A stretch of DNA of 64,000 bases from Bdellovibrionales bacterium RIFOXYD12_FULL_39_22. Lineage in GTDB: Bacteria; Bdellovibrionota; Bacteriovoracia; Bacteriovoracales; Bacteriovoracaceae. Positions within the stretch are counted from its first letter, which is position 1; every line of letters starts with the position of its first letter. Made by a program: the position numbers and the translations under genes. The stretch lies in NCBI GenBank assembly GCA_001770205.1, contig MEQL01000051.1, forward strand, positions 1 to 64,000, written 5' to 3'. Positions 962-16,444 of the stretch are shown in pieces. Under the pieces are notes generated by a model. The model saw only the letters and a list, made by a program, of their open reading frames with translations. It searched no databases and was not told where the DNA came from.

Positions 962-2530
962 CTAATTACACGGTAGACGAATTGAAAAACAACTTCCATG
1001 TCCGAGAGTAGAGGTGACATCTATCGTGCCAGAATGATTTAAAGTGATAATTCGGTGTGTAACTGCCAAGCCTAGTCCAGTTCCTTCATTGGGAGATTTG
1101 GTAGTAAAAAAAGGCTCAAAAATTCTTTTTAAAACTTTTGGCTCCATGCCCTGGCCGTTGTCTTCTATCTCTATCAATATGGCGTTTCCATCCTTTTTTA
1201 AACGCAAAGTAATTTGAGGTGGGCGAGTGCTAGGATTGGTATGCATTGCTTGCGCTGCATTTTTTAATAGGTTCAAAAAGACTTGTTCCATTTCACCAAA
1301 GATTATCGGAATTGCCGGAAGATCATTGGCAAATTCACGAACTATTTTAATGGCCTTAAAATCATACTTCTTTTTAAGACTATAATCGTTGGCAGCAAGT
1401 TCGATGGACTGTTCTATCAAAGTATCTAAGGTGATGGCTATTTTTGTATCTTTGCTATTGCGACTAAATTGTAACATGCTGTGAATAATACGAGAGGCAC
1501 GGGCCACGGCGGTTTTTATATCAGCGATAAAAGTATCAATCTCTCTACGTTTGCAATAGGCGCTAATTTTTTCTAGATCGGTACCAACCTCCTTGGCAAT
1601 GGCCAGATTTGCAGTCATTTCAGGTGAAAAACGCCGTTCAATATTTTGAGCTGCTTGTGTAATAATGCCCAAGGGATTGTTTATTTCATGGGCCATGCCT
1701 GCGGCCAAACCACCAAGAGAAATCATCTTTTCCGTTTGTAGCATGAGTGATTGAATATTGTTTTTCTCGCGCATATTTTCAATGGCCTGTGCCGAGGCCT
1801 GCTCGCGGGCCTTTTCTCCTTTGGTATAAAGATTAGAAATAATTAGCGCGGCAATAATCATTAGTGCCCATAGCACTAGATGAGAAATTGTCACAATCTT
1901 AACTCCCTGTGCAGAAACCAATTGGTGTTTGTGCAGAGGTACGGAAACACTAATTCCTCCGCGAATATCTCCTAATTTGTATCCTTGCGACTCATGACAT
2001 TTTAAACATCCTTGCTCAGTTATGACTGGACGCATATAGCGCAAATAATCACCAGAAGGGGAGGTTACAATTTCTGTCATTTCCGAACTGCCATTTTCAA
2101 AAGAAGTTAAGGCCATTTTTTCCCAAGCATCAGGCGCATTTGCCGGGCGCAGAGGGCGAAGACTGGTGATGTGTCCTTTTACTCCAAATTCGTCCTTTGC
2201 TATTTCGTGAACTTGCCTCGTCATGTAGGCCGGGTTTATCAGCGTCAATTTTTTTCCGTTGGAGGTGGAGATATCTCGTTCTTTTATATGCGCCAGAAAT
2301 GGATTGGGAGGAGTATTGGCAGTAACTTCAACATAAGTACCACCATGCTCTGCGGCCCATCGTCGGTAGGCCAAATCCTTACTGTAAGCAGCATCGGCCT
2401 CAATTTTGGCCAAGGAGAAAATATGACTGTTTTCTTCATGAATATTCCACAAAAGTGATAGTGCTGTCAGTATGGTCAATAAAATTATAGTCAGTACAGT
2501 AAGTGTTTTAGTGGAAATAAATTTCTTCAT
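962..2530 (-). CDS. sensor histidine kinase with periplasmic c-heme DUF3365/Tll0287-like domain
   Basis: Two TM helices, periplasmic CLKCH, H-box AHEINNPL, N/G1/F/G2 boxes. Confidence 0.9.
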   Translation of the reverse strand: MKKFISTKTLTVLTIILLTILTALSLLWNIHEENSHIFSLAKIEADAAYSKDLAYRRWAAEHGGTYVEVTANTPPNPFLAHIKERDISTSNGKKLTLINPAYMTRQVHEIAKDEFGVKGHITSLRPLRPANAPDAWEKMALTSFENGSSEMTEIVTSPSGDYLRYMRPVITEQGCLKCHESQGYKLGDIRGGISVSVPLHKHQLVSAQGVKIVTISHLVLWALMIIAALIISNLYTKGEKAREQASAQAIENMREKNNIQSLMLQTEKMISLGGLAAGMAHEINNPLGIITQAAQNIERRFSPEMTANLAIAKEVGTDLEKISAYCKRREIDTFIADIKTAVARASRIIHSMLQFSRNSKDTKIAITLDTLIEQSIELAANDYSLKKKYDFKAIKIVREFANDLPAIPIIFGEMEQVFLNLLKNAAQAMHTNPSTRPPQITLRLKKDGNAILIEIEDNGQGMEPKVLKRIFEPFFTTKSPNEGTGLGLAVTHRIITLNHSGTIDVTSTLGHGSCFSIRLPCN

Positions 2531-4473
2531 TATTTTTGCTCACGATCTAGCATTTCGCGTATCTTGTAGAGAAATTCAATAGGCCGCACAGGCTTCATCA
2601 TTAATTCTAAATTTGCCTCCATTTTTCCGCGATTGTAGGCCACCTCTGAAGAGTAGCCGGTAGTAAAAAGAGCTTTAATTTCTGGCCTTATTGCTCGAAT
2701 TTCTTCATAGGCAGCAACTCCATTTTTTCGAGGCATAATGGTATCAAAAAATAGTAAGTCAACTTCATCGGCATGCAGTTTAAATTTATCGACTGCGTCT
2801 TGGCCATCTACGGCCGTGATTACACGGTATCCAAAATCGCGAAGAAAAATTTCTGCAAGACCTAACAGAGAAGCATCATCATCGGCAACCAATATAGCTT
2901 CATTGCCACCTTTGGGATATTCTTCGGCGCCAGTAGCACTTATGCCGATAATTTTTTCTTTATCCATGAGGGGAAGAAAGATTTTAAAAGTAGTTCCCTT
3001 TTCTTTATCACTTTCAACGTTGATAAAACCACCATGTTGCCGAACAATGCCATCAACAATGGCCAGGCCAAGGCCTGTGCCTACACCGACCGCTTTTGTT
3101 GTAAAGAAGGCTTCAAAAATTTTACTTTTTGTTTCCGGATCCATTCCTTCGCCGGTATCGGATACGATAAGTATGGCAAAACCATTCGGATGAGATGCAT
3201 CTCCTTTTTGTATGTCCGTTCGAATAATTATTTCTCCACCGCCAGGCATAGCGTCACGCGCATTAGATGCCAAGTTCATTAAAATTTGCTCAATTTGGCA
3301 ACTGTCTGCGTAAATAGGGACAGGGGAGTCGTGACAAGAAGTCGTCAGAGAAATATCGTCACTAAGCAATCTTTTTAAGAAGCTTTGAGATTGAGTGATA
3401 ATAGTGTTTAGGTCAACATATTTAGCAATAACTTCTTGTTGGTGACAAAAAGAGAGTAGACTGCGAGTCAATTTTTTTGCCCGATCGGAGGCCTGTTGTA
3501 CTTGCGTTAAAATTTGGGTTGAAGGGACATCACTACTTATTTTTCGGCGCAATAAATCAGAAAAACCGATAATCGCAGTTAGAATATTATTAAAATCATG
3601 CGCAACACCACCCGCCAATTGGCCGATTGTTTCAAGCTTTTGAGCTTGTCGTAATTGTTCTTCAAGTTTTCTTCGCTCTGAAATATCTTCGGTAAAAATA
3701 ATTATTGCTGGCCCCTCCGCCAAAGTTATGGAGCCGACCGTTATGTTGGCCGGAAAAGTTGAAAAATCTTTGCGCATGGCCTTTGTTTCAAATTTAATGC
3801 CATTTACAAGGAGTGCAAAATCATTTTCTGCTAATTGCTTTTGCAAATCTCGCTCAGCTCCAGACGCAAAAAGCTCCTCACTTAGTTTTCCCACCATTTC
3901 TTTAGAATTTTTAAAAGCATAGATGCGAATGGCCGCATTATTAACATAATTAATTCTATTATCTTTGATCAAAATAATTGGCAGTGGAGAGCTTTCAATC
4001 AAAGTTCGAAACTTTATTTCGCTATACCAAATATCCTTGCTTTTTTGAATGATGGCACCTTCTAAGTCTTTGACATATTTTTTATTTTCCACTCGCAAGC
4101 GGGCATGTTCCAGAGTTCGCTGTAACACAATTTCTACTTCACCAGTCTCTTGTAAAGGCTTTAAAAGATAATCCCATGCTCCATGATGAATGGCCTCAAT
4201 GGCATCTTTAATGTTACCAGTTCCAGAAACTACAACTGTGGGAATTTCCGGTGCCAATTGTTTCAGGTTGGAGATTAAAGTTAGGCCATTCATTTCCGGC
4301 ATTCGTAAATCGGTAAAGACAATATCTGGACGATGTTTAGCAAATAGTGAGAGGGCCTCTTTTCCATTGAGTGCAGAAATAACACTGTGTCCACGATCCT
4401 CTAAGAGTGCTTTGAAATTGCGCAAGATAGCTTCTTCATCATCAACAATCAATATTTTTATAGGTGCAGACAT
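2530..4473 (-). CDS. hybrid histidine kinase REC-PAS-HisKA-HATPase-REC
   Basis: N-terminal REC (DD...TDLRMP), PAS, AHDFNNIL H-box, GTGLGL, C-terminal REC; TAATG-coupled to the downstream kinase. Confidence 0.92.
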   Translation of the reverse strand: MSAPIKILIVDDEEAILRNFKALLEDRGHSVISALNGKEALSLFAKHRPDIVFTDLRMPEMNGLTLISNLKQLAPEIPTVVVSGTGNIKDAIEAIHHGAWDYLLKPLQETGEVEIVLQRTLEHARLRVENKKYVKDLEGAIIQKSKDIWYSEIKFRTLIESSPLPIILIKDNRINYVNNAAIRIYAFKNSKEMVGKLSEELFASGAERDLQKQLAENDFALLVNGIKFETKAMRKDFSTFPANITVGSITLAEGPAIIIFTEDISERRKLEEQLRQAQKLETIGQLAGGVAHDFNNILTAIIGFSDLLRRKISSDVPSTQILTQVQQASDRAKKLTRSLLSFCHQQEVIAKYVDLNTIITQSQSFLKRLLSDDISLTTSCHDSPVPIYADSCQIEQILMNLASNARDAMPGGGEIIIRTDIQKGDASHPNGFAILIVSDTGEGMDPETKSKIFEAFFTTKAVGVGTGLGLAIVDGIVRQHGGFINVESDKEKGTTFKIFLPLMDKEKIIGISATGAEEYPKGGNEAILVADDDASLLGLAEIFLRDFGYRVITAVDGQDAVDKFKLHADEVDLLFFDTIMPRKNGVAAYEEIRAIRPEIKALFTTGYSSEVAYNRGKMEANLELMMKPVRPIEFLYKIREMLDREQK

Positions 4474-4586
4474 AAGGGCCCTCTCAAGCGTTTATTCGAT
4501 AAATTAATTTAATATAAGCTATCTCGGAGTATTCTTATTTTCAATAGTAGAAATTAGAAGAGAAGGGGATAATAAAAAAATTATGG

Positions 4587-5354
4587 TTATCTTAATAGTT
4601 GTTCTAGTTCTAGTGAAGCATTACTCTTTTCATCACGATACTTTATTATAAGTGCACAATTTGTATGTAACCCCATTTTCTCTCCCCAGGAGTGAGTATC
4701 ACCCAGAGGCCTGCTACCCGGAATTACCACTGCACAAGGAGGAATTTCAGCACCACGCTCTAAAATGCGCTGATGAACGGTGTCATAAACGGTGACTCCC
4801 TTGGAGAGAATAACCCCCGGAGCAATAACCGCTGATTGCTTAACCACAACGCCTTCTACAATTATAGATCCAGCACCCACAAAGACGTTATCTTCAATTA
4901 TCACCGGCCGTTGTCCAATTGGTTCAAGCACGCCACCAATTTGGACTCCGGCCGAAAGATGGACATTTTTGCCAATTTGAGCGCAAGAACCGACCAGCAC
5001 ATTACTATCGATCATGGTACCACTGTCGATATATGCTCCAACATTTATATAGGATGGAGGCATAATTATAACGCCGGTGGCAACATAGCTACCACGCCGT
5101 ACTGCCGACCCACCTGGAACAATTCTAACTCCGCGGGCCACGCTAAAGGTCTGCGGCAGCAGAGTATCTTTGTCAATGAACCCGTTGTGTTCAATCAAAA
5201 CACCGGCACGAAACGCTGCCAAAATAGACTCTTTTATTTTGCTGTTGCTCAACCAAGATTTTGTTGACTCATTAAAATACGCCGAACGCAGCTGTCCGGA
5301 TTCAAGTTGATTTAGAACCTCCTCAAATGATTTATCTAGATTAGGAGTATTCAT
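4587..5354 (-). CDS. dapD: tetrahydrodipicolinate N-succinyltransferase
   Basis: Hexapeptide repeats, RIVPGGSAVRRGSY, VGSCAQIGKNVHLSAGVQIGGVLEP; dap operon context. Confidence 0.93.
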   Translation of the reverse strand: MNTPNLDKSFEEVLNQLESGQLRSAYFNESTKSWLSNSKIKESILAAFRAGVLIEHNGFIDKDTLLPQTFSVARGVRIVPGGSAVRRGSYVATGVIIMPPSYINVGAYIDSGTMIDSNVLVGSCAQIGKNVHLSAGVQIGGVLEPIGQRPVIIEDNVFVGAGSIIVEGVVVKQSAVIAPGVILSKGVTVYDTVHQRILERGAEIPPCAVVIPGSRPLGDTHSWGEKMGLHTNCALIIKYRDEKSNASLELEQLLR

Positions 5355-6259
5355 TTAGTAAACCACTTTCGAATTTCTCGGTCGCTCTCTTCGAGAAGCT
5401 CGGTACTTTTTAAATCCAAAGCAGAAAGAGGTAAACGCATCTTATTAGAACTAATTCGACCTAAACGATGTAAAATTGCTTTGGCCGGGATTGGATTGCT
5501 GGCCGTAAAAAGTGAATCAGAGGCCTTTTGCCACATCTTGCCTTCTACCGTCTCTGGAGTAATTTTTAACTCTAAAGACATTTTAGTATAAAGATTAGTT
5601 TCCGCCGGCCAAACATTAGACGCCACCGAGATTAGGCCTGCGGCACCCAAGGAGGCATGCCCTGGTAACATTCCATCGTCTCCACTAAAAATTTTAAGCT
5701 GGGGAGCATCCTCCCGATATCGACTAAATTCTAGATTGCTACCACTGGCCTCTTTGATGGCCCAAGCGTTGGGATGTTTTGCAAGTCGCTTGGCGGTATT
5801 GTGGTTTAGTGCTATCCCGGCCCGTCCAGGAATGTTATATAGCATCACCGGACGTGAAGAGAGATCCATTAGTGTTTTAAACCATTGATACTGTCCCTCT
5901 TCTCCAGGTTTTGCGTAAATAGGAGTGGGCATAAGATAACAATCGACATCCAAAGTTTCTAAATAGCGCATCCAAGCAGAACTCTCTTGGATATTGTGGC
6001 CACTAACTCCCACCATAATGGGAACGGGAAAATTTTGTTCGAGCGCAATTTTTAAGATTGTCTTTTTTTCATCGAGATTTAAATTTAATGCTTCCCCTGT
6101 ACTTCCTAGGAGCAACAATCCGTTATGGGCCGCTGCTTGCTCTTTTAGCAGAACTTGCAGGGATTTAACATCCAAGGTGTCATTTTCTGTAAGTGGAGTG
6201 ATAAGCGCTGTCCAAAGTGAAAAATCATGGATGTTTTTTTTAAGATTACTACTTTTCAT
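5351..6259 (-). CDS. dapA: 4-hydroxy-tetrahydrodipicolinate synthase
   Basis: GSTGE, LYNIPGR, AIKEAS, SGDD, NPIPAK motifs. Start moved to ATG 6259 (RBS AGGAG). Confidence 0.93.
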   Translation of the reverse strand: MKSSNLKKNIHDFSLWTALITPLTENDTLDVKSLQVLLKEQAAAHNGLLLLGSTGEALNLNLDEKKTILKIALEQNFPVPIMVGVSGHNIQESSAWMRYLETLDVDCYLMPTPIYAKPGEEGQYQWFKTLMDLSSRPVMLYNIPGRAGIALNHNTAKRLAKHPNAWAIKEASGSNLEFSRYREDAPQLKIFSGDDGMLPGHASLGAAGLISVASNVWPAETNLYTKMSLELKITPETVEGKMWQKASDSLFTASNPIPAKAILHRLGRISSNKMRLPLSALDLKSTELLEESDREIRKWFTK

Positions 6260-6935
6260 ATAAATATTCTCCTGCCAAATTAGAAAAATAATGTAGTCCG
6301 TAGGGGAGAGAAGGATCACTTAAAAGCTTTTTTGCTGCCCATATTGCGCCTTGTGCAAAAATTTTTCGATCATGGGCCACATGTTTCAAGGTAATACTTT
6401 CAAAGGGAGTGTTAAGTGTTAACTCGTGAATACCGACTACTTCACCTTCTCGATGGCCTGTAATGGAAATTTTTTTTGGGTCATCTATTATTTTTGCCCA
6501 GGCCAGTGCCGTTCCACTTGGGTTATCTACTTTCTTTGTGTGATGTGTTTCATTTAACGTATAACTGTAATCATTTAAAATATTTTTAGCATGAGAGAGT
6601 TCTTTCAGCATTCGATTGGCCAAGGCCATGCCTAGGGAAAAATTAGAAGCGTAAATCCACCTAATCCCATTGGATTTAAGTCTGGTATCTAAATTCTCCG
6701 GAAGAATAAGTCCTGTACTGCCAGCGGCCAGTGGAATTTTACTGGCAATAAGCAGATCAAGTTGGGATAAAAATATTTCTCCCGGTGTAAAATTAATTAT
6801 GACATCGTGTCCGCTCAAAGTTGTGAGGGTGGGAGGATTTTCCAGATTAAAAATAGAAAAAGCATATGACTCCTGAGTAAGAAGATCTGCAACATGATGG
6901 CCTGTTTTTCCATTTCCGATAAGCGCAACTTTCAC
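6249..6935 (-). CDS. dapB: 4-hydroxy-tetrahydrodipicolinate reductase
   Basis: GNGKTG Rossmann motif, ASNFSLG, ETHHTKKVDNPSGTA, FAQGA. Confidence 0.93.
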   Translation of the reverse strand: MKVALIGNGKTGHHVADLLTQESYAFSIFNLENPPTLTTLSGHDVIINFTPGEIFLSQLDLLIASKIPLAAGSTGLILPENLDTRLKSNGIRWIYASNFSLGMALANRMLKELSHAKNILNDYSYTLNETHHTKKVDNPSGTALAWAKIIDDPKKISITGHREGEVVGIHELTLNTPFESITLKHVAHDRKIFAQGAIWAAKKLLSDPSLPYGLHYFSNLAGEYLYEK

Positions 6936-6936
6936 G

Positions 6937-7929
6937 TTATTTTCCTAAGTATTTATGAAATAATTCAAGATTTAAGATTGCCGCCCCGGCGGCACCACGA
7001 ACAAGATTATGTCCCATGGCCACTAACGAGATTTGACGAGGATCTTCGGAAACACGAATCCTGCCGATATGAGTTCGATTGTCAAAATCTGTTAAATCTC
7101 GAGTTGGGCGAGGGGAGAAATTATCAAAATGTAGTTGATAGGCCTGGGGAAATTTTTCGGCGTATGTGATAAATAACTTTTCAATCTCTTGCTTTGAAAT
7201 GTTCTCCGTGAAATGGACATTAGCAATCACTGTATGGCCGTGCTTGACAGGAATACGGTTGACATTGACGGTAGTCGTAAAAGTGGCCGGCAAAGAAGTT
7301 GATCCCAAAATCTTTTTTACCTCATTTTGAATCTTTTCCTCTTCTCCTAAAATATTAGGAATACAATCACCCAGAATATCTAGCGAAGGAAGTCCGGGAT
7401 ATCCGGCGCCACTAATGGCCTGTAGAGTTACGGCCGTAATATGCTTTATTTTATAAGTTGCATATAGCGGGAAAATGGCCATCGCCAAAAAAACAGTTGA
7501 ACAGTTGGGGTTGGTTACCATTTTGCCGGTAGTTTTTTGCTGTGCCACGATTTCTAGATGAGAAGGATTAATTTCAGGAATTAAAAGAGGAACATATTTA
7601 TTCATTCGAAAAGTAGAAGCATTACTGATTACATGAATTCCCTTACTGGCCAGATTTGGTTCAATTTCAGCGGCGACCTCTGAAGGTAGGGCCGACAATG
7701 CGTAAGGAGAGGTAATTTCACTAGTAGATTTAAAACGCATTTGAAAAACAGAGGAGGGGATTTTTGTGCGCTCAAACCAAGTGGATACTTCGCCGTAAGA
7801 CTTATTTAAGTTTTTATCGGAGGCAACAATTTCTGCGACATAAAAATGGGGATGATCAGAGAGCATGGCAATCATTTTTTGGCCAACGACACCAGTAGAA
7901 CCCAAGATTGCCACAGGGATTTTATTCAT
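6937..7929 (-). CDS. asd: aspartate-semialdehyde dehydrogenase (archaeal/fungal-like subtype)
   Basis: LGSTGVVGQ, NPNCST, QAISGAGYPG, HNLVRGAAG. Start at ATG 7929 with RBS AGGAG. Confidence 0.93.
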   Translation of the reverse strand: MNKIPVAILGSTGVVGQKMIAMLSDHPHFYVAEIVASDKNLNKSYGEVSTWFERTKIPSSVFQMRFKSTSEITSPYALSALPSEVAAEIEPNLASKGIHVISNASTFRMNKYVPLLIPEINPSHLEIVAQQKTTGKMVTNPNCSTVFLAMAIFPLYATYKIKHITAVTLQAISGAGYPGLPSLDILGDCIPNILGEEEKIQNEVKKILGSTSLPATFTTTVNVNRIPVKHGHTVIANVHFTENISKQEIEKLFITYAEKFPQAYQLHFDNFSPRPTRDLTDFDNRTHIGRIRVSEDPRQISLVAMGHNLVRGAAGAAILNLELFHKYLGK

Positions 7930-8103
7930 AACAATTCTCCTAAGCGAATACGGAATATTGATGGGCAAAAGGTAACAAAGAATCCTTAAAGATTCAAACT
8001 TTAGTTTACTTCGTAGATTCCCAGGTTTTTGTTTATTTTGAAACTTTTTCAAATTGCTTACTTAAGATTTAAGAAGTTTATTCAATTGTCGAAGAGGTTG
8101 GGT

Positions 8104-9415: not shown

Positions 9416-10636
9416 ATGCTCCAACACAATTTTAAGCTCGTCTATTTTCTTGATGCACTTTTTTTTGCACTAATGACGGGAGCTGGAGAAGTTTATTTTA
9501 GCGCCTATGCTTTGCGCCTCGGACACTCTGAATTACAGGCCAGTCTTCTGGCAACAGTACCATTTGTTATTGGTGGACTTCTGCAAGCTGTGGCACCTAT
9601 AGGCTTAGCTAAAATTAAATCATATCGCACCTGGGCAGTTTTATGTGCATTTTCACAGGCAGTATTATTTCTTCCTCTGGTTTTCTTTCAATCTTTTTTA
9701 CAAAACAATTACAGTGTTCTGTTTTTGGTTGTAACAATGTATCACATCTTTGGCCTAACAATTTCTCCGGCCTGGGTCACTTGGCTTTCTAGATTGATAG
9801 ACAAAGAAAAAACAGCACTATTTTTTAGTGTTCGCAATAGTATTACCTCGTTTTTCATGCTGGCCGGGATTGTGGCCGTTGGTGTGCTATTACAATACGG
9901 TAAATTACAAAATATCGATTTGAAAATTTTCCAAATCGTTTTTTTTGCATGCTTTTTATTTCGAGCAATTTCTACCTTTATGCTCTTTAAACATCCTTCT
10001 GTGGAGTTTAGCGATGAGAAGAAGACCTTTCGGCAGGTGCTTTTTTTAAAAATTCCAAATGATTTTTTGAAAAAAATTACTTCATTTACAGTAATTTTTA
10101 AAGCAGGTGTTTTTATTTCTGCGGGTTTCTTTGCGCCCTACATGTTGAAGGTTCTGAAATTTTCCTATTTCGAGTACATGATAATAATTGCTTCCTCTTT
10201 TTTTGGAAGAATTATTTTTTTACAAATATTTCGCAAATATTTCTCTAACGTTGATAGAAGACGGGTCTATTTGCTATCGGCGGTAGGCATCTCGATAATT
10301 CCAGCACTATGGACTCTATCTACCAGCATAAAATATCTTTTTATACTCGAACTGCTGACAGGAATTTTTTGGGGTGCACACGAATTGTCATTTTTTCTTA
10401 TTGTCTTCAAAGAAGCAAAAGATGATTTTAAAACATCTTTTATGAGTTACTTCAATTTTTACCATACAATTGCTATTGGAATTGGAGTAGGGGTGGGAGT
10501 AATTATATTTAATTTTTTAGAAAATCAAGGCACTCCATCGTATGTCTATATTACTATCTTTCTAACTTCATCCCTTATACGTTTGGGGTCGTTTTTACTT
10601 TTTCCATCCAAAAACCTAAACCTAACATCAAAATAA
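9416..10636 (+). CDS. MFS transporter
   Basis: 406 aa with about 12 hydrophobic segments. Confidence 0.85.
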   Translation: MLQHNFKLVYFLDALFFALMTGAGEVYFSAYALRLGHSELQASLLATVPFVIGGLLQAVAPIGLAKIKSYRTWAVLCAFSQAVLFLPLVFFQSFLQNNYSVLFLVVTMYHIFGLTISPAWVTWLSRLIDKEKTALFFSVRNSITSFFMLAGIVAVGVLLQYGKLQNIDLKIFQIVFFACFLFRAISTFMLFKHPSVEFSDEKKTFRQVLFLKIPNDFLKKITSFTVIFKAGVFISAGFFAPYMLKVLKFSYFEYMIIIASSFFGRIIFLQIFRKYFSNVDRRRVYLLSAVGISIIPALWTLSTSIKYLFILELLTGIFWGAHELSFFLIVFKEAKDDFKTSFMSYFNFYHTIAIGIGVGVGVIIFNFLENQGTPSYVYITIFLTSSLIRLGSFLLFPSKNLNLTSK

Positions 10637-10641
10637 TTAAG

Positions 10642-10683
10642 ATAAGCTATGAGGTATAATTCCTATTATACCTCATAGCTTAT
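10642..10683. terminator. long hairpin between convergent genes (probable bidirectional terminator)
   Basis: Perfect 19-bp inverted repeat ATAAGCTATGAGGTATAAT-TCCT-ATTATACCTCATAGCTTAT. Confidence 0.75.
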
Positions 10684-12488
10684 TCGTCTTTCAAAAATAG
10701 ATTTGGCAAAAAATATCCAGACGAAATCTTCCGCCGGCCAATGATTGGGCCAACTGATGCCTGTAATATTCTCTGTCCCACTTCTGCAGAATCCATTTCG
10801 GGATTTTTTGCCAACATTATTGCCGCATAGGCCGCAATAATTGGTGTAGCATAACTAGTTCCGGAAGCGCCTACCAGCGAATCTCCGCCATCATAAAGAT
10901 ATAAGTTCTCGCTATAAGTTGCAGTTTTGATTATTTTCCCGAAAGCACGTGTTAAGATGGCATTTTCACTAATTCCACTTATTGATAAAACATTAGGCAA
11001 ATTTGCCGGAAACTCTTTCTCCAAATCTTGATTGCGTGCAATATCATTAGATGAGGCTCCCAATATAATTACCCCTTGAGCAAAGGCCCGATCGATAGCA
11101 TTTTGTAGATAGGTTCGAGACTTCTCATAGTCGCCATCAATGAATTTAAAAAAAGTTCGATAAGTTTCACTTATTCCAAAAGACATGTTAATAACTCTGG
11201 CCCCACGCAAAACAGCATAATCGATAGCGTCCGCAACGCGCTTAAAATATAAGTCATCCGATTTCCCATCAAAAGAATCAACTGTTATGGGTAGGATTTT
11301 TATAGGATGTGGCCTAGTCTCATCATAAGCAGAAATCAGTGCTACCATTGAAGCAACTCTAGTTTCGTGCAATCCATTGGCCGAATTATGTGTGCCGTAA
11401 TTAGTGCCATTTCCTAAAAACAGATTTAATCCGTTATAATCATCAACATAACCGTTACCATCATCATCAAAACTGTTGTCGGGAATTTCTTTTTTATTTT
11501 GGTCAATCATACCAAGAAAATTTGCTGGATTAATTTCTGCGCCAACTATGGCCACGGTTTGCGAGCGAACTCGACCATCTAAAACGGATTGATGACTCCA
11601 TTGTAATTTATCTAGCACTCCCCTATTTTGTTCTTCCATTTTTTTTTGCCAAGTAGAAGAATCTTTAAGTTGTCCGTCTATATCATTGGCCTGAGCATAG
11701 GCCTGAGGAGAGTTGCAAATTGGTGAGACGATCGGCAATTTTTCAAATTTTTTAGTGGCATGATTAAAAACATTAGAACTTTGCCAATTAAAACATTTTA
11801 ATGCCTTCTCCTGGCCCATTCCTTGAGGGGTACTAATCAGTGGAATATCTTCGATCTTGTAGACACAGGAGATAAATTCTAAAGACGTGTTTGTTGCAGA
11901 TTCAGCTTCTTCATAGTAACTGGCCGAGCCAGGCGTATCCCTAACATAGAGAACTGGGACCAACGGCAATTTTTGATAATACAGTGATTCGCTATCTTCG
12001 GAATAAGAACCAGCAACACTGTTCCAACGATAGAGATCATGACGAGTATGTGAAGGTTTTGTAATCAACCATGAATTGTATAGTGGATCAACATCAATGG
12101 AATCAATCACCATTTGTGGATGGATAAACTTAACATTTTGTCGTCCAAAAAACTCGCGAACCGTCCCAAAATGAAAAGAATCTTTAGTACTCTCCCACAT
12201 ACAACCCCTAATAAATTGCACAATACCAAACTTTAACAAATTATCCACGGAGTCAGTGGTATACCTTAGGTAGACGCGAGACTTAAGATTGCGTCCAAAA
12301 CTACCTTGAATATCTAAATCCTTAACTAAAATTTCAAAACTTTTAAGAGAACAACTCTGAGTTATCTGACAATTTTGATTTTGATAGATTTCACTTTGTC
12401 TAATTGTCTCGTAGGTTTTTGCCAAAAGGAAGGAAGAAAAAGAAAAAAAAGTAGCGATAAATATAATTTTTTTCACAATGAAAAACAT
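10680..12488 (-). CDS. secreted S8 (subtilisin-like) protein with uncharacterised N-terminal domain
   Basis: Signal peptide; DDDGNGYVDD insert, HETRVAS, INMSFG, GTSYATP. The triad Asp position is Gly. Confidence 0.8.
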   Translation of the reverse strand: MFFIVKKIIFIATFFSFSSFLLAKTYETIRQSEIYQNQNCQITQSCSLKSFEILVKDLDIQGSFGRNLKSRVYLRYTTDSVDNLLKFGIVQFIRGCMWESTKDSFHFGTVREFFGRQNVKFIHPQMVIDSIDVDPLYNSWLITKPSHTRHDLYRWNSVAGSYSEDSESLYYQKLPLVPVLYVRDTPGSASYYEEAESATNTSLEFISCVYKIEDIPLISTPQGMGQEKALKCFNWQSSNVFNHATKKFEKLPIVSPICNSPQAYAQANDIDGQLKDSSTWQKKMEEQNRGVLDKLQWSHQSVLDGRVRSQTVAIVGAEINPANFLGMIDQNKKEIPDNSFDDDGNGYVDDYNGLNLFLGNGTNYGTHNSANGLHETRVASMVALISAYDETRPHPIKILPITVDSFDGKSDDLYFKRVADAIDYAVLRGARVINMSFGISETYRTFFKFIDGDYEKSRTYLQNAIDRAFAQGVIILGASSNDIARNQDLEKEFPANLPNVLSISGISENAILTRAFGKIIKTATYSENLYLYDGGDSLVGASGTSYATPIIAAYAAIMLAKNPEMDSAEVGQRILQASVGPIIGRRKISSGYFLPNLFLKDE

Positions 12489-12605: not shown

Positions 12606-13313
12606 ATGAAACAAGTTTTAGATGAAAAAAAATTTGAAGCGGAAATGGCCAATATCGGAATGGCCTCATTGTCAGTAATACATGAGATAAAAAATCCAGT
12701 AACACTAATTCACGGTTATGCGGAGATGCTTAGAGAAGGTAATTTACCAGCAGAAAAAGTGGCAAAGCTGGGAGAAAAAATTGAAAAATCTGCTCTTAAA
12801 ATTTTGGACATCATCGCCAGCGTTCGCGCTCTAATTAAAAACGAGCATAGCACAAATGAGCAGATAAAAATCTCAGAGATAATTGCCGAAGTCAGTGGCC
12901 AATTGCATTCAAAAATAATCGCTGAAAAAATTAAATTAACTACTGAGAATGATCTCAATATCTCTGGAAATAAAACCCAAATCTATCAAGTTTTTTATAA
13001 TCTTATAAATAACGCTATCGATGCCATTGCGCCTCTTTCGGAAAAATGGATAAAAATTAGTTGTCAGCAAAATGGCCCCAAAGATCTTGCTATTTATATT
13101 ATTGATTCTGGAAAAATCGATCCATCCATAATTGATAAAATCTTTCTTCCTCTTTTTTCTACCAAATTATCTTCTGGAAAAGGGACAGGAATTGGCCTTT
13201 ATCTGGTAAAGCGCATTGTAGAATCACATGGTGGCACTGTTGGGGTGGATAAATCGGCCGCCAACACCACTTTTGTTATTCGACTCATTTCCGACCAGGA
13301 TGGTCGGCTTTAG
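12606..13313 (+). CDS. histidine kinase without sensor domain (HisKA-HATPase)
   Basis: IHEIKNP at about residue 26, NLINNAIDA, GTGIGLY; no TM or sensor domain. Confidence 0.85.
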   Translation: MKQVLDEKKFEAEMANIGMASLSVIHEIKNPVTLIHGYAEMLREGNLPAEKVAKLGEKIEKSALKILDIIASVRALIKNEHSTNEQIKISEIIAEVSGQLHSKIIAEKIKLTTENDLNISGNKTQIYQVFYNLINNAIDAIAPLSEKWIKISCQQNGPKDLAIYIIDSGKIDPSIIDKIFLPLFSTKLSSGKGTGIGLYLVKRIVESHGGTVGVDKSAANTTFVIRLISDQDGRL

Positions 13314-13350: not shown

Positions 13351-13378
13351 CTCGTAGATAATAAAGATTATATGAGAA
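13351..13378. other. dif-like tyrosine-recombinase crossover/binding site
   Basis: CTCGTAGATAA-TAAAGA-TTATATGAGAA: 11-6-11 layout with the inner ATAA/TTAT of dif sites, 7/11 arm symmetry, overlapping the recombinase ATG. Confidence 0.55.
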
Positions 13379-14379
13379 GCAAAGAAGTGATTGAATATCA
13401 GATTACTAAAAATGATCGACAAGCTGATTTTCAACTAATAGATAACAATCAAGAAGCACAAAAACTTGATTATGAATTTTTTAAAAATTTCCCCTCTTTG
13501 CATACACAAAAATCATATCGTAATGACATAAAGCAATTTTTAAAATTTCTAGCTACCAATTTTCCTATCGTTCAAAATATTGCGCAGACAGAAAAATTTC
13601 ATTTAGTAGCATATCGAAATTGGTTAGAAGATCAAGCACACTTTGCCCCCAAATCAATCAACCGAAAATTGGCGGCCGTCTCCAGTTATTTTGATTTTTT
13701 ATGTGAAAAAGGATTTGTCGAACACAATCCATGCGAGAATATTCGCCGACCTCGCCAAGAAGTAGTCACCGAGACCAACGATCTATCTGACGATGAAGTT
13801 CGAGAACTTTTTCGAGTAGTTGATGAAAAGGCCTCTCCCCTGCATCGAGCAATAATCTACCTATTCTTTTCTACTGGAATTCGTAAATCTGAGTTAATAA
13901 ATCTGAAGTTGAAAGATTATAAAAGTATCGATGGCCATAAAATTATAAACATCAAGGCCAAAGGTGGTAAATATCTACAAAAAGTTATTCACCCAACATG
14001 TGATGAAGTTTTACAGGAATATCTAAGCTGGATGCATAACAGCGGAAAAGATCTAGAAGATGATGATTGGATCTTTCGCCCAACTAAAAATCCTTCGGGA
14101 CATCATGCTTCCTTAGATAAAACACTACGCCCAAAATCTGTTGATTATATTGTTGCCAAATATGCTAAGATGGCCGGAATTAGCAAACGCATCTCCCCTC
14201 ACTCTGCGCGCGCTACTTATATTGGTTCAGCGTTAGAAAATGGAGAAGATTTATTTCGCGTTTCTCAAGATGTTGGACACGCTAGTGTCAAAACTACCCA
14301 GGAATATAATAAACGGCGAGCAAAACTTAAAGAGTCCCCGGCCTATAATTTGGCATTCCTTGATAAAAAAATTGCGTAA
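13372..14379 (+). CDS. XerC/XerD-like tyrosine recombinase
   Basis: N-terminal SAM-like domain (SINRKLAAVSSYFDFL); catalytic residues TGIRKSEL, KGGK, HSAR, GHAS, TQEY all intact. Confidence 0.92.
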   Translation: MRSKEVIEYQITKNDRQADFQLIDNNQEAQKLDYEFFKNFPSLHTQKSYRNDIKQFLKFLATNFPIVQNIAQTEKFHLVAYRNWLEDQAHFAPKSINRKLAAVSSYFDFLCEKGFVEHNPCENIRRPRQEVVTETNDLSDDEVRELFRVVDEKASPLHRAIIYLFFSTGIRKSELINLKLKDYKSIDGHKIINIKAKGGKYLQKVIHPTCDEVLQEYLSWMHNSGKDLEDDDWIFRPTKNPSGHHASLDKTLRPKSVDYIVAKYAKMAGISKRISPHSARATYIGSALENGEDLFRVSQDVGHASVKTTQEYNKRRAKLKESPAYNLAFLDKKIA

Positions 14380-14473
14380 TTTTTTCATTAAAGTTAATTT
14401 TTTGTTGCCACTTGACTCCATTATGACGTAATTGCACACCATGTTGATCTTTCCATCAAACAAGGAGTTTCCT

Positions 14474-14749
14474 ATGAAAACAAGTGGATTATCTTTACTT
14501 TTGGCCTCTTTTTTACTTTTTGCCCCGGCAATTCTCCAAGCTGCCGACTATGGCAGTTGTGAAGAAATGGTTTGTAAAACCATTGGATATGATTTCGGTG
14601 ATAGTTACTCTTTTGCTTTTCCTAAACAGTGCTACGAAAAATTAGAGTGCAAAATTATGGAATGGGACGAGTTAACTGAAGAGTGTGTAGCTACCGATAG
14701 TCGCTTAATTTATCAACCCATTCAATGTCGAGATATTCCGCCAATGTAG
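14474..14749 (+). CDS. small secreted Cys-rich hypothetical protein
   Basis: RBS AAGGAG, ATG 14474, signal peptide, six Cys in the ~68-aa mature part. Confidence 0.75.
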   Translation: MKTSGLSLLLASFLLFAPAILQAADYGSCEEMVCKTIGYDFGDSYSFAFPKQCYEKLECKIMEWDELTEECVATDSRLIYQPIQCRDIPPM

Positions 14750-14757
14750 ATATCAGA

Positions 14758-15414
14758 TCATGGCCCTGGAAGTAGTGCTATATCGAGTTTTTTATAGTGA
14801 TCTAAAACATTAGCTGAAAGCAACAGTGGGCCACTGACCTCTAGGCCAAATCTTCCTCCCAAACCGGCCCAGGCGAGCGAGGTGGCCAATACTTGATCTT
14901 TTTTTATTGCATTAGAACGTAATAGTGCCTTGCCGTTAATTACAATTAGTTCCATCTCCTCAAACATAGGAGAACTGACTACCACAAAATCTGAAGATTT
15001 ACCTCCCACGTATCCCGGGCCGGCCTGCACCACGATGAGCCTTTGAGAGATAAATTCACGTTGCGGAGAAATCCAACGAGCACTGCCACGAACCAGAGTA
15101 AAATTTTGTAAATTCTCCGCAGTTTTCTCTAACGAAATCGCTGGTGAATTAATAGATAATAGCGATAACGGGCCTATCACCAAAAAAGTTTCATCTGCTG
15201 GTAGATATATTTTTATGATTGAATCAACATCAGTTCCAATAGAACCACTGTAAGGGATTTTGTCTCCTAAAACCAATACTCGCTGGCCGTACGTTGCGAC
15301 TCCTTTGATAGCAACTACTTCCCCATAATAATCTGTAGCAAATCCCAAGGTGTAGGAAATAAAATTTAAAATAAAAACAAAGAAAAATAAAAAAATATTT
15401 CTATTGAATCTCAT
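14758..15414 (-). CDS. secreted FecR-domain-like protein
   Basis: Signal/TM segment followed by LGDKI..IGTDVDS..FLVIGPLS..LVRGSARW..GGKSSDFVV (degenerate GVRGTxF). Probable start 15414. Confidence 0.6.
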   Translation of the reverse strand: MRFNRNIFLFFFVFILNFISYTLGFATDYYGEVVAIKGVATYGQRVLVLGDKIPYSGSIGTDVDSIIKIYLPADETFLVIGPLSLLSINSPAISLEKTAENLQNFTLVRGSARWISPQREFISQRLIVVQAGPGYVGGKSSDFVVVSSPMFEEMELIVINGKALLRSNAIKKDQVLATSLAWAGLGGRFGLEVSGPLLLSANVLDHYKKLDIALLPGP

Positions 15415-16444
15415 GCCTATACTCCAAAGAAAATTTTGTAATTGCTTCATAATCATTGAGGTCGTGAGTCACCGCGGCTTCTACACTCGGAGAAAGATAA
15501 GACGCTACATCATAAAAAAAACACAATTTTGATTTTGAAAGAAAATTGAATCCAATTCCCATCCCAAAGGTTGAAGCGATCAACTCTCCATAATTATCAC
15601 TCTTGATTCCCTTCTCATCCAACAAACCAATCCGTTCTCCCGATGAACCACGAACAAATAAACTTAAAGCATTATGTTGATAATCGGCCGTCCAGTCAAA
15701 AACTTGATAGCTACCACTAGTATCAAGAGAATTTGCAGTTAAAATATTATGCAGTTTTAGCGAAATTTCCAAAAGATCGGTGTTAAAAAAAACAGGTCCG
15801 ACTTTGGCCTTCACATACGGTGTCATCTGCCAATTAATAAGGCCCAGATCATTTATTATTGGGTAAAAGAAATATAACCCGACCACCACTGGCCGATATA
15901 TCGCATAATCCCAATTCGAGATAAAAAGAGTACCGCTGTTAATATTGCTAGAGGGATAGGTCATTTGTCGTACTCCCACACTGTAATTAAATTTTTTGCC
16001 AAAAAAAGAGTATAGAATAAGAAGATCCAAACGAGTTTCCGATCCTTCATCCGTTCGTAGATAGGTGTGAAAATAGTCCAATTTAAAATCTAAAAGAGTA
16101 CGAGGCCTATCTGTTTGTCGTTTCCATCGCTGCACCCAAAGCGAAAAATCAGAGCCTAATGACTTATCTGCTTGCGTATCATAAAGAGAAAGTTGAAATG
16201 AAGAAATAATAGAGTACTGAATTTTAAGCGGTAAAGGATCGGGAAATTTTTTTTTCAACCAATAGTCTACATCTTTTGCCCTACCAATATTTTCCTCCTC
16301 ACTGAAAACAGTATTAGTAGGCGGGTAATAATTTAGTGGAAAATAATTACTACCATAGGGGATAAAAAACGACTCCTCACTACCACATAGATTACTTATT
16401 GTAAGTACCGTGCAGAGAACGACAATTATCCCTATCCTTATCAA
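15401..16444 (-). CDS. hypothetical exported protein, probable outer-membrane beta-barrel
   Basis: Signal-like N-terminus, aromatic-rich alternating strands, C-terminal FSLEYRH; TTG start overlaps the upstream TGA. Confidence 0.55.
   Translation of the reverse strand: MIRIGIIVVLCTVLTISNLCGSEESFFIPYGSNYFPLNYYPPTNTVFSEEENIGRAKDVDYWLKKKFPDPLPLKIQYSIISSFQLSLYDTQADKSLGSDFSLWVQRWKRQTDRPRTLLDFKLDYFHTYLRTDEGSETRLDLLILYSFFGKKFNYSVGVRQMTYPSSNINSGTLFISNWDYAIYRPVVVGLYFFYPIINDLGLINWQMTPYVKAKVGPVFFNTDLLEISLKLHNILTANSLDTSGSYQVFDWTADYQHNALSLFVRGSSGERIGLLDEKGIKSDNYGELIASTFGMGIGFNFLSKSKLCFFYDVASYLSPSVEAAVTHDLNDYEAITKFSLEYRHEIQ

Follow-up and report, generated by a model that had tools for sequence, protein, structure and literature searches.

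A palindromic dif-like site and a candidate single Xer-type recombinase at a chromosomal locus of the Bacteriovoracaceae

The recombinase gene and its surroundings

The window, by which we mean the whole 64-kb stretch of DNA analyzed here, corresponds to positions 1 to 64,000 of contig C51 (80,983 bp) in a draft genome of 62 contigs that totals 3.95 Mb at 39% G+C and is 94.6% complete. On the plus strand at 13372-14379 lies the gene for a 335-amino-acid Xer-like tyrosine recombinase, P0001, and 2.7 kb upstream of that gene, at 10646-10679, lies a 34-bp dif-like site of which P0001 is the presumed cognate enzyme. A Pfam scan placed two genes between them, one for an S8 subtilase (10680-12488, minus strand) and one for a HisKA and HATPase fragment (12606-13313, plus strand), and a gene for an MFS transporter on the other side of the site (9416-10636, plus strand). 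The neighbors of the recombinase, which also include a xanthine-dehydrogenase-like protein, are ordinary cellular genes. No phage or transposon genes were found around the recombinase gene in the Pfam scan of its neighbors, and no tRNA was found between positions 1 and 30000 of the window. The initial annotation had described an intact 335-amino-acid tyrosine recombinase outside any tRNA, phage, or transposon context, and that description is borne out. We note that the 235-amino-acid product of 12606-13313 has HisKA and HATPase_c domains only, with no sensor or membrane part, and is a stand-alone or truncated histidine-kinase core encoded directly upstream of the recombinase gene. Three further open reading frames that adjoin the recombinase gene had no Pfam match (14432-14749, plus strand; 14758-15456, minus strand; 15401-16444, minus strand), and the start of the first resembles a signal peptide.

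P0001 matches PF02899 and PF00589 and consists of two domains only, an N-terminal SAM-like core-binding domain and a catalytic domain, with no arm-binding domain. All six catalytic residues are kept. Across 41 aligned Xer-type rows, R171, K197, H277, R280, and Y312 never vary, and H303 is invariant in the 13 rows of clade A, the clade to which P0001 itself belongs. The genome contains 12 matches to PF00589, among which P0001 is the only good Xer-like one. The earlier description of a "lone" recombinase holds for the sole good Xer-like gene but not for the genome's full set of 12 matches, nor for the family, which has a second, degenerate Xer-derived protein. No other protein of the genome matches the XerC, XerD, and XerA models as well as P0001 does, yet P0001 falls below every curated cutoff: it scored 148.7 bits against a cutoff of 335.15 for XerC (TIGR02224), 131.4 against 329.6 for XerD (TIGR02225), and 124.8 against 220 for XerA (NF040815). 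The XerS model (NF003462) gave 83 bits against a cutoff of 267 and aligned with residues 160 to 315 only. Among seven PDB matches to P0001 were archaeal XerA (5hxy, E value of 1.7e-16; 4a8e, 3.1e-16) and Escherichia coli XerD (1.8e-13), and the weakest was XerH (5jjv, 1.2e-6).

The palindromic site and its relatives

The site at 10646-10679, for which no strand is assigned, reads CTATGAGGTATAA-TTCCTA-TTATACCTCATAG. It is a perfect palindrome of the form 13-6-13, in which two perfectly symmetric 13-bp arms flank an asymmetric 6-bp center, TTCCTA. A canonical-style 28-mer, ATGAGGTATAA-TTCCTA-TTATACCTCAT, lies within it at 10649-10676 and is the only 11/11-symmetric site among the 329 ATAA-N6-TTAT sites in the genome. 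The perfect inverted repeat around the site extends over 10642-10683, and a repeat search returned 19-nt arms that are 100% complementary. The site fills the 43-bp gap between the convergent MFS-transporter and S8-peptidase genes, and the subtilase stop codon (10680-10682) overlaps the extended palindrome near its outer edge.

Twelve sites were used to build a covariance model, 34 nt long, which was searched in 101 Bacteriovoracaceae genomes. Within the window, the dif-like site was the sole strong match (43.5 bits, E value of 6e-10; next best, 10.2 bits), and in this genome as a whole the model found one site, reported on both strands. One site per genome is what we observe here and in most relatives, but the genome G007 has several. 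Across the family, the site was found in 46 of 101 genomes at an E value of ≤1e-3 and in 77 at an E value of ≤1, and about 35 of the 46 strong-site genomes had contributed no sequence to the model. In the alignment of the 12 model sites, the inner ATAA/TTAT shows little or no variation, and the outer arm positions vary, with 94.9% of cells complementary and 8 of 13 pairs changed on both sides, a count that is partly circular because the model sites were picked for palindromy. Among the best 30 sites, the 13-bp arms are symmetric at 13/13 positions in 17 and at no fewer than 10/13 in all 30; they fall into a few related arm types (CTCTACCCKATAA, YTACCCCATATAA, and CTATGNGGTATAA), and the center resembles TTNCCA. 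Palindromes near the orthologous gene read ATGTGGTATAA-CTTCCA-TTATACCACAT in G007, CTTCCCTATAA-CTTCCA-TTATAGGGAAG in G017, ATGAGTTATAA-TTTCTA-TTATAACTCAT in G021, and ACCCCATATAA-TTACCA-TTATATGGGGT in G003. The arms differ between genera (for example, the left arm in the window versus CTCTACCCGATAA), and the outer bases change on both arms together, which may point to ongoing coevolution of recombinase specificity and site.

A recombinase match at an E value of ≤1e-25 is present in 90 of the 101 family genomes. In 29 genomes a strong site and an orthologue share one contig, and in every one of the 29 they are between 60 bp and 37.5 kb apart. The distance is 60 bp in G017, 79 bp in G007, 1.0 kb in G094, 2.7 kb in the window, 4.7 kb in G059, 25.9 kb in G071, and 35 kb in G003. 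In six genomes belonging to five genera (G007, G087, G017, G048, G016, and G111), the site closely precedes the gene, 60 to 136 bp before its first aligned residue. In the remaining 17 genomes with a strong site, site and gene are on different contigs or no close orthologue was found. Some of the distribution speaks against a dif site: 22 of the 55 genomes without a strong site (E value of ≤1e-3) still carry an orthologue, three genomes have a strong site and no close orthologue (G047, G101, and G097), and the several extra related sites in G007 are at odds with a single copy.

The exact core ATAATGGAAGTTAT was also tried as a marker. It matched 18 of the 101 family genomes, its reversed control matched 14, and 6 of 22 matches had symmetric flanks. 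Because of the control matches and the few symmetric flanks, the exact core was dropped and the covariance model was used instead. In G003, a 9/11 site at 1,687,272, which adjoins a different recombinase, was rejected for an 11/11 site at 1,715,533. A search of public species genomes returned five related loci, one of which (L104) gave a site.

Position relative to the replication terminus

Four relatives have single-contig or near-closed chromosomes (G094, G003, G059, and G071), and two of these, G059 and G071, lay outside the training of the covariance model. In all four, the dif-like site is found at the GC-skew switch, 46 to 50% of the chromosome away from dnaA, where the skew maximum is a local one taken within 200 to 400 kb around each site and not over the whole chromosome. 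In G094 (3,810,309 bp; dnaA at 157), the site at 1,898,691 is 3.2 kb from the skew maximum at 1,901,925 and 49.8% from dnaA. In G003 (3,435,933 bp; dnaA at 187), the site at 1,715,530 is 49.9% from dnaA and 15.6 kb from a maximum at 1,731,123 that belongs to a flat plateau from 1.605 to 1.735 Mb. The site of G059 (2,483,271 bp; dnaA at about 565 kb) lies at 1,699,454, only 155 bp from the maximum at 1,699,609 and 45.7% from dnaA, and that of G071 (3,720,099 bp; dnaA at about 617 kb) lies at 2,410,585, which is 0.8 kb from the maximum at 2,411,425 and 48.2% from dnaA.

The contig that carries the window is less clear-cut. The 10.6 kb available left of 10646 have a GC skew of -0.004, compared with -0.115 on the right. 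The initial annotation had placed the recombinase gene near a skew switch; the drop to the right of 10646 agrees with that placement, but the 10.6 kb to the left is close to zero rather than positive. No positive-skew side is visible in this genome because the contig ends at base 1 of the window. The near-zero skew on the left counts against a dif site in this genome, as do the genes at 962-8052, which are on the minus strand.

A polar 7-mer, GGAGAGT, was counted in the stretches around the sites of the four genomes (loci L081-L100, L106-L125, and L178-L197) and in the window from 10680 to 64000. In the four genomes, 88% of its copies are on the leading strand (n = 252), with the strand switch at the site. 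Among all 105 orderings of its letters, which have a median of 60%, it is both the commonest and the most skewed. Rightward of the site on this contig, GGAGAGT favors the minus strand 17:5, as would be expected of a right replichore, and no copy occurs in the 10.6 kb on the left. The skew and the GGAGAGT pattern of this contig fit a terminus at or near the site but do not prove it. We note that GGAGAGT is a candidate FtsK-orienting polar sequence for the Bacteriovoracaceae. An FtsK with a gamma domain is encoded in the genome.

Xer proteins, alternative readings, and the proposed system

The initial annotation raised the matter of canonical xerC and xerD genes and of another dif elsewhere in the genome. 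No match to XerC or XerD above the cutoff was found in this genome at its 94.6% completeness, and the candidate for another dif is the palindrome at 10646-10679. The XerD model was also searched in a sample of 121 genomes of the phylum Bdellovibrionota, 17 of them Bacteriovoracaceae and 104 from other families. In the other families, 102 of 104 genomes matched at 1.6e-53 or better, mostly with two matches (XerC and XerD), and 35 genomes of the sample passed the strict XerD cutoff. None of the 17 Bacteriovoracaceae had a match better than 2.2e-50, and each had at most one or two weak matches.

Where P0001 belongs among Xer proteins was addressed with a tree of 50 proteins, with XerS, XerH, and XerA outside the tree and the PDB E values standing in for them. 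Four orthologue loci with full-length open frames (L019, L021, L024, and L028) were left out of the tree and of the catalytic-residue alignment because a stop was flagged inside the match. P0001 and its orthologues formed clade A (13 rows, support of 98), which grouped with a clade B of lower identity (8 rows). Clades A and B together (support of 99, branch length of 1.2) stood apart from the XerC-like rows (support of 97) and the XerD-like rows of the phylum. Measured against XerC and XerD, as the initial annotation had proposed, P0001 belongs to a separate, third Xer-like clade. Clade B includes third copies from two other families that keep XerCD, and because clade B coexists with XerC and XerD there, the third lineage predates the loss of XerCD. 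Clade B relatives of 395 to 410 amino acids (L032, L033, and L036; genomes G029, G037, and G033) are among those that coexist with XerC and XerD.

The second Xer-derived protein, P0122 (328 amino acids; G000:C2:26165-27148, equal to L157:2166-3149 on the minus strand of L157), is conserved across the family (23 of 24 genomes), also in genomes without an orthologue of P0001, and is present in the sister family as well. Pfam recognized its N-terminal SAM-like DNA-binding domain only, and PF00589 gave no match. When P0122 was aligned with XerA and 15 orthologues, the first catalytic arginine was replaced by lysine (asparagine or serine in two rows), the first histidine by lysine or arginine, and the second histidine by valine or leucine, and the second arginine was kept. 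The gene is not linked to the dif-like site and is 315 kb away from it in G003. P0122 is probably not a catalytic partner of P0001; it may descend from XerC or XerD and have taken on a new, noncatalytic role.

Which sequence at the locus is the site, and whether the palindrome is a recombination site at all, admit other answers. The initial annotation took as the dif-like site, and as an autoregulatory operator of the recombinase, a 28-mer read from the sequence at 13351-13378 on the plus strand, CTCGTAGATAA-TAAAGA-TTATATGAGAA. The 28-mer exists as described, with the ATG of the 335-amino-acid open reading frame inside its right arm; it has 11-6-11 geometry, an inner ATAA/TTAT, an arm symmetry of 7/11, and a position directly at the gene, and in the six other genomes noted above the real site does sit just upstream of the recombinase gene. 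Symmetry of at least 7/11, however, is found in 95 of the 329 ATAA-N6-TTAT 28-mers genome-wide, and the motif count in the window is 4 against 4.09 expected from shuffles. Moreover, no ATAA-N6-TTAT motif lies over or beside the start codon in any of 16 orthologue loci; at two of the loci a perfect palindrome precedes the first aligned residue by 87 to 118 nt, and another locus carries a 4/11 motif that is unrelated. The 28-mer, which had been expected to be conserved upstream of orthologues, is absent from all 16 upstream regions. Finally, the covariance model, run over the whole window with filters off, did not report 13351-13378 even at an E value of ≤10, and a far better, unique site lies 2.7 kb away. 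We judge the 28-mer to be a chance match outside the system and give almost no credence to its having either proposed role. Autoregulation likewise finds no support here, because the real site lies 2.7 kb upstream of the gene and two unrelated genes separate them. The palindrome at 10646-10679 could instead be a transcription terminator or a structural hairpin, unrelated to recombination. It lies in a 43-bp gap between convergent open reading frames, and a simple scan calls a terminator-like hairpin of 19 pairs, with a T-poor tail, on the minus strand. Both features count against a dif site. Terminators are not essentially single copy as this site is, nor would a terminator account for an inner TATAA-N6-TTATA and a TTNCCA-like center that are kept across genera while the outer arms vary symmetrically, or for coincidence with the skew switch in four genomes. 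The site precedes the recombinase gene, with no convergent pair around it, in G007, G017, G048, and others, and we consider a terminator very unlikely.

The remaining alternatives accept a recombination site and differ on the enzyme. Many tyrosine recombinases are integrases, and in G007 arrays of related sites are accompanied by a separate recombinase, such that the P0001 gene might be the integrase of a mobile element and the palindrome its attachment site. The P0001 gene, however, occurs once in almost every family genome and always lies close to the terminus, its product has a simple two-domain architecture without an arm-binding domain, and no tRNA, phage or transposon genes, or flanking direct repeats are found near it; an integrase seems to us scarcely tenable. 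Alternatively, P0001 and P0122 could form a two-protein system like XerC and XerD, with P0122 binding or regulating at dif without catalysis. The wide conservation of P0122, its N-terminal DNA-binding domain, and its retained second arginine favor such a pair. Perfectly symmetric arms argue instead for a single DNA-binding specificity, and the degenerate catalytic positions of P0122, its failure to match PF00589, and its distance from the site also weigh against a pair, which we regard as improbable.

The reading we favor, and think likely from the sequence comparisons, is that 10646-10679 serves as the dif site for chromosome dimer resolution, with P0001, the 335-amino-acid product of 13372-14379, as the one Xer-type recombinase that acts on it. 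The general idea of a self-contained, single-recombinase dif/Xer system, with which the initial annotation began, survives in this form on a unique conserved site, a terminus position in relatives, linkage, and the lack of XerC and XerD. From sequence we infer binding and catalysis by P0001 at the site, its homotetramer, and its dependence on FtsK. Four identical protomers would each occupy one of the four identical 13-bp half-sites in two sister dif copies; arms that do not differ are expected of a single DNA-binding specificity. Tyr312 and the R-K-H-R-H active site would then exchange strands across TTCCTA, the asymmetry of which would fix the alignment of the two dif sites, and a chromosome dimer would be converted to monomers. 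Recombination is probably coupled to FtsK translocation at the septum. We speculate further, and with considerable doubt, that the Bacteriovoracaceae, and probably the whole order, dropped XerCD/dif for a single recombinase of the third lineage acting on a loxP-like symmetric 13-6-13 dif, with recombinase and site specificity coevolving and with P0122 as a relic of the old pair that is perhaps a noncatalytic regulator, for example, of FtsK coupling.

Cre/loxP and Flp/FRT combine symmetric 13-bp arms and an asymmetric spacer with a homotetramer of one recombinase. The likeness to the proposed system is one of architecture only: the spacer is 8 bp there and 6 bp here, and the site here is chromosomal and, in relatives, at the terminus. 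Cre was not among the PDB matches to P0001 at an E value of ≤1e-5. Archaeal XerA is likewise a single recombinase, provides the solved structures closest to P0001 by sequence, and acts on a dif with an inner ATAA/TTAT. XerA is not known to need FtsK, however, whereas this genome encodes FtsK with its gamma domain, and P0001 falls short of the XerA model cutoff and comes from a bacterial lineage whose sister families have XerCD.

XerH/difH of the Campylobacterota (Helicobacter and Campylobacter) was defined by Carnoy and Roten (PMC2731167). It resembles the proposed system in having one Xer-type recombinase in place of XerCD, inverted arms around a 6-bp center, and a site that lies near the skew peak (here in four relatives) and is often but not always beside the gene; the site-to-gene distance ranges from 16 bp to about 215 kb for difH (PMC2731167, Table 2) and from 60 bp to 37.5 kb here. 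P0001 is nevertheless distant from XerH (an E value of 1.2e-6 for 5jjv versus 1.7e-16 for XerA). The inner arms given for difH are TGAAAA/TTTTCA (PMC2731167) versus TATAA/TTATA here, which sets the site here apart from the difH type (TGAAAAC...TTTTCAAA), and the arms here keep perfect symmetry for 13 bp. In streptococci and lactococci, XerS/difSL also pairs one recombinase with a site directly upstream, as in the six genomes with the site 60 to 136 bp from the gene, but P0001 scores far below the XerS cutoff, and the site and gene in the window are 2.7 kb apart. The difSL site is 31 bp and asymmetric (PMC2731167 and PMC3025954).

The canonical XerC/XerD-dif of E. coli and Bdellovibrio bacteriovorus HD100 shares with the site described here an 11-6-11 layout, an inner ATAA/TTAT, a terminus position (here seen in relatives), and low G+C. 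Its arms, however, are specific for XerC and XerD, whereas the arms here are identical and the Bacteriovoracaceae have no proteins of XerC or XerD grade. HD100, a member of the same phylum, is listed with a canonical dif and XerCD (PMC2731167, Table 1), and a 2023 review repeats dif/XerCD for Bdellovibrio (PMC11318664). Neither Bdellovibrio nor Bacteriovorax appears in the main text of Kono et al. (PMC3025954) or of Smyshlyaev et al. (PMC8138268). In the literature searched, no description of Xer/dif or of dimer resolution was found for Bacteriovorax, Halobacteriovorax, or the Bacteriovoracaceae, in keeping with the initial annotation's statement that none was recognized for the lineage, and supplementary tables could list such genomes. 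If the proposal is correct, the system would be, as far as these main texts go, a fourth, independent case of single-recombinase dimer resolution beside XerS, XerH, and XerA, hosted by predatory bacteria whose sister families keep XerCD. Arms that vary between genera and yet stay symmetric would provide a natural series for the coevolution of recombinase and site, and a 34-bp site with one 335-amino-acid enzyme could serve as an orthogonal recombination tool. The dif-like site would also mark the replication terminus in Bacteriovoracaceae assemblies, and the annotation of these genes as XerC, XerD, or "integrase" would be corrected.

We note, separately, that G007 contains at least seven copies of a second, related site type, CTATTCCTAATAA-CTCCCC-TTATTAGGAATAA (L158:811-12066, L159:2592-10033, L160:5029-5062, and L161:3143-6542). 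Three contigs each carry two or three directly oriented copies spaced 2.4 to 8.8 kb apart, in a layout that resembles cassette arrays or modules flanked by dif-like sites. One of the second-type sites is near a separate tyrosine recombinase of 331 amino acids, which is absent from the genome of the window and has a 48%-identical homologue in G003, beside the 9/11 site.
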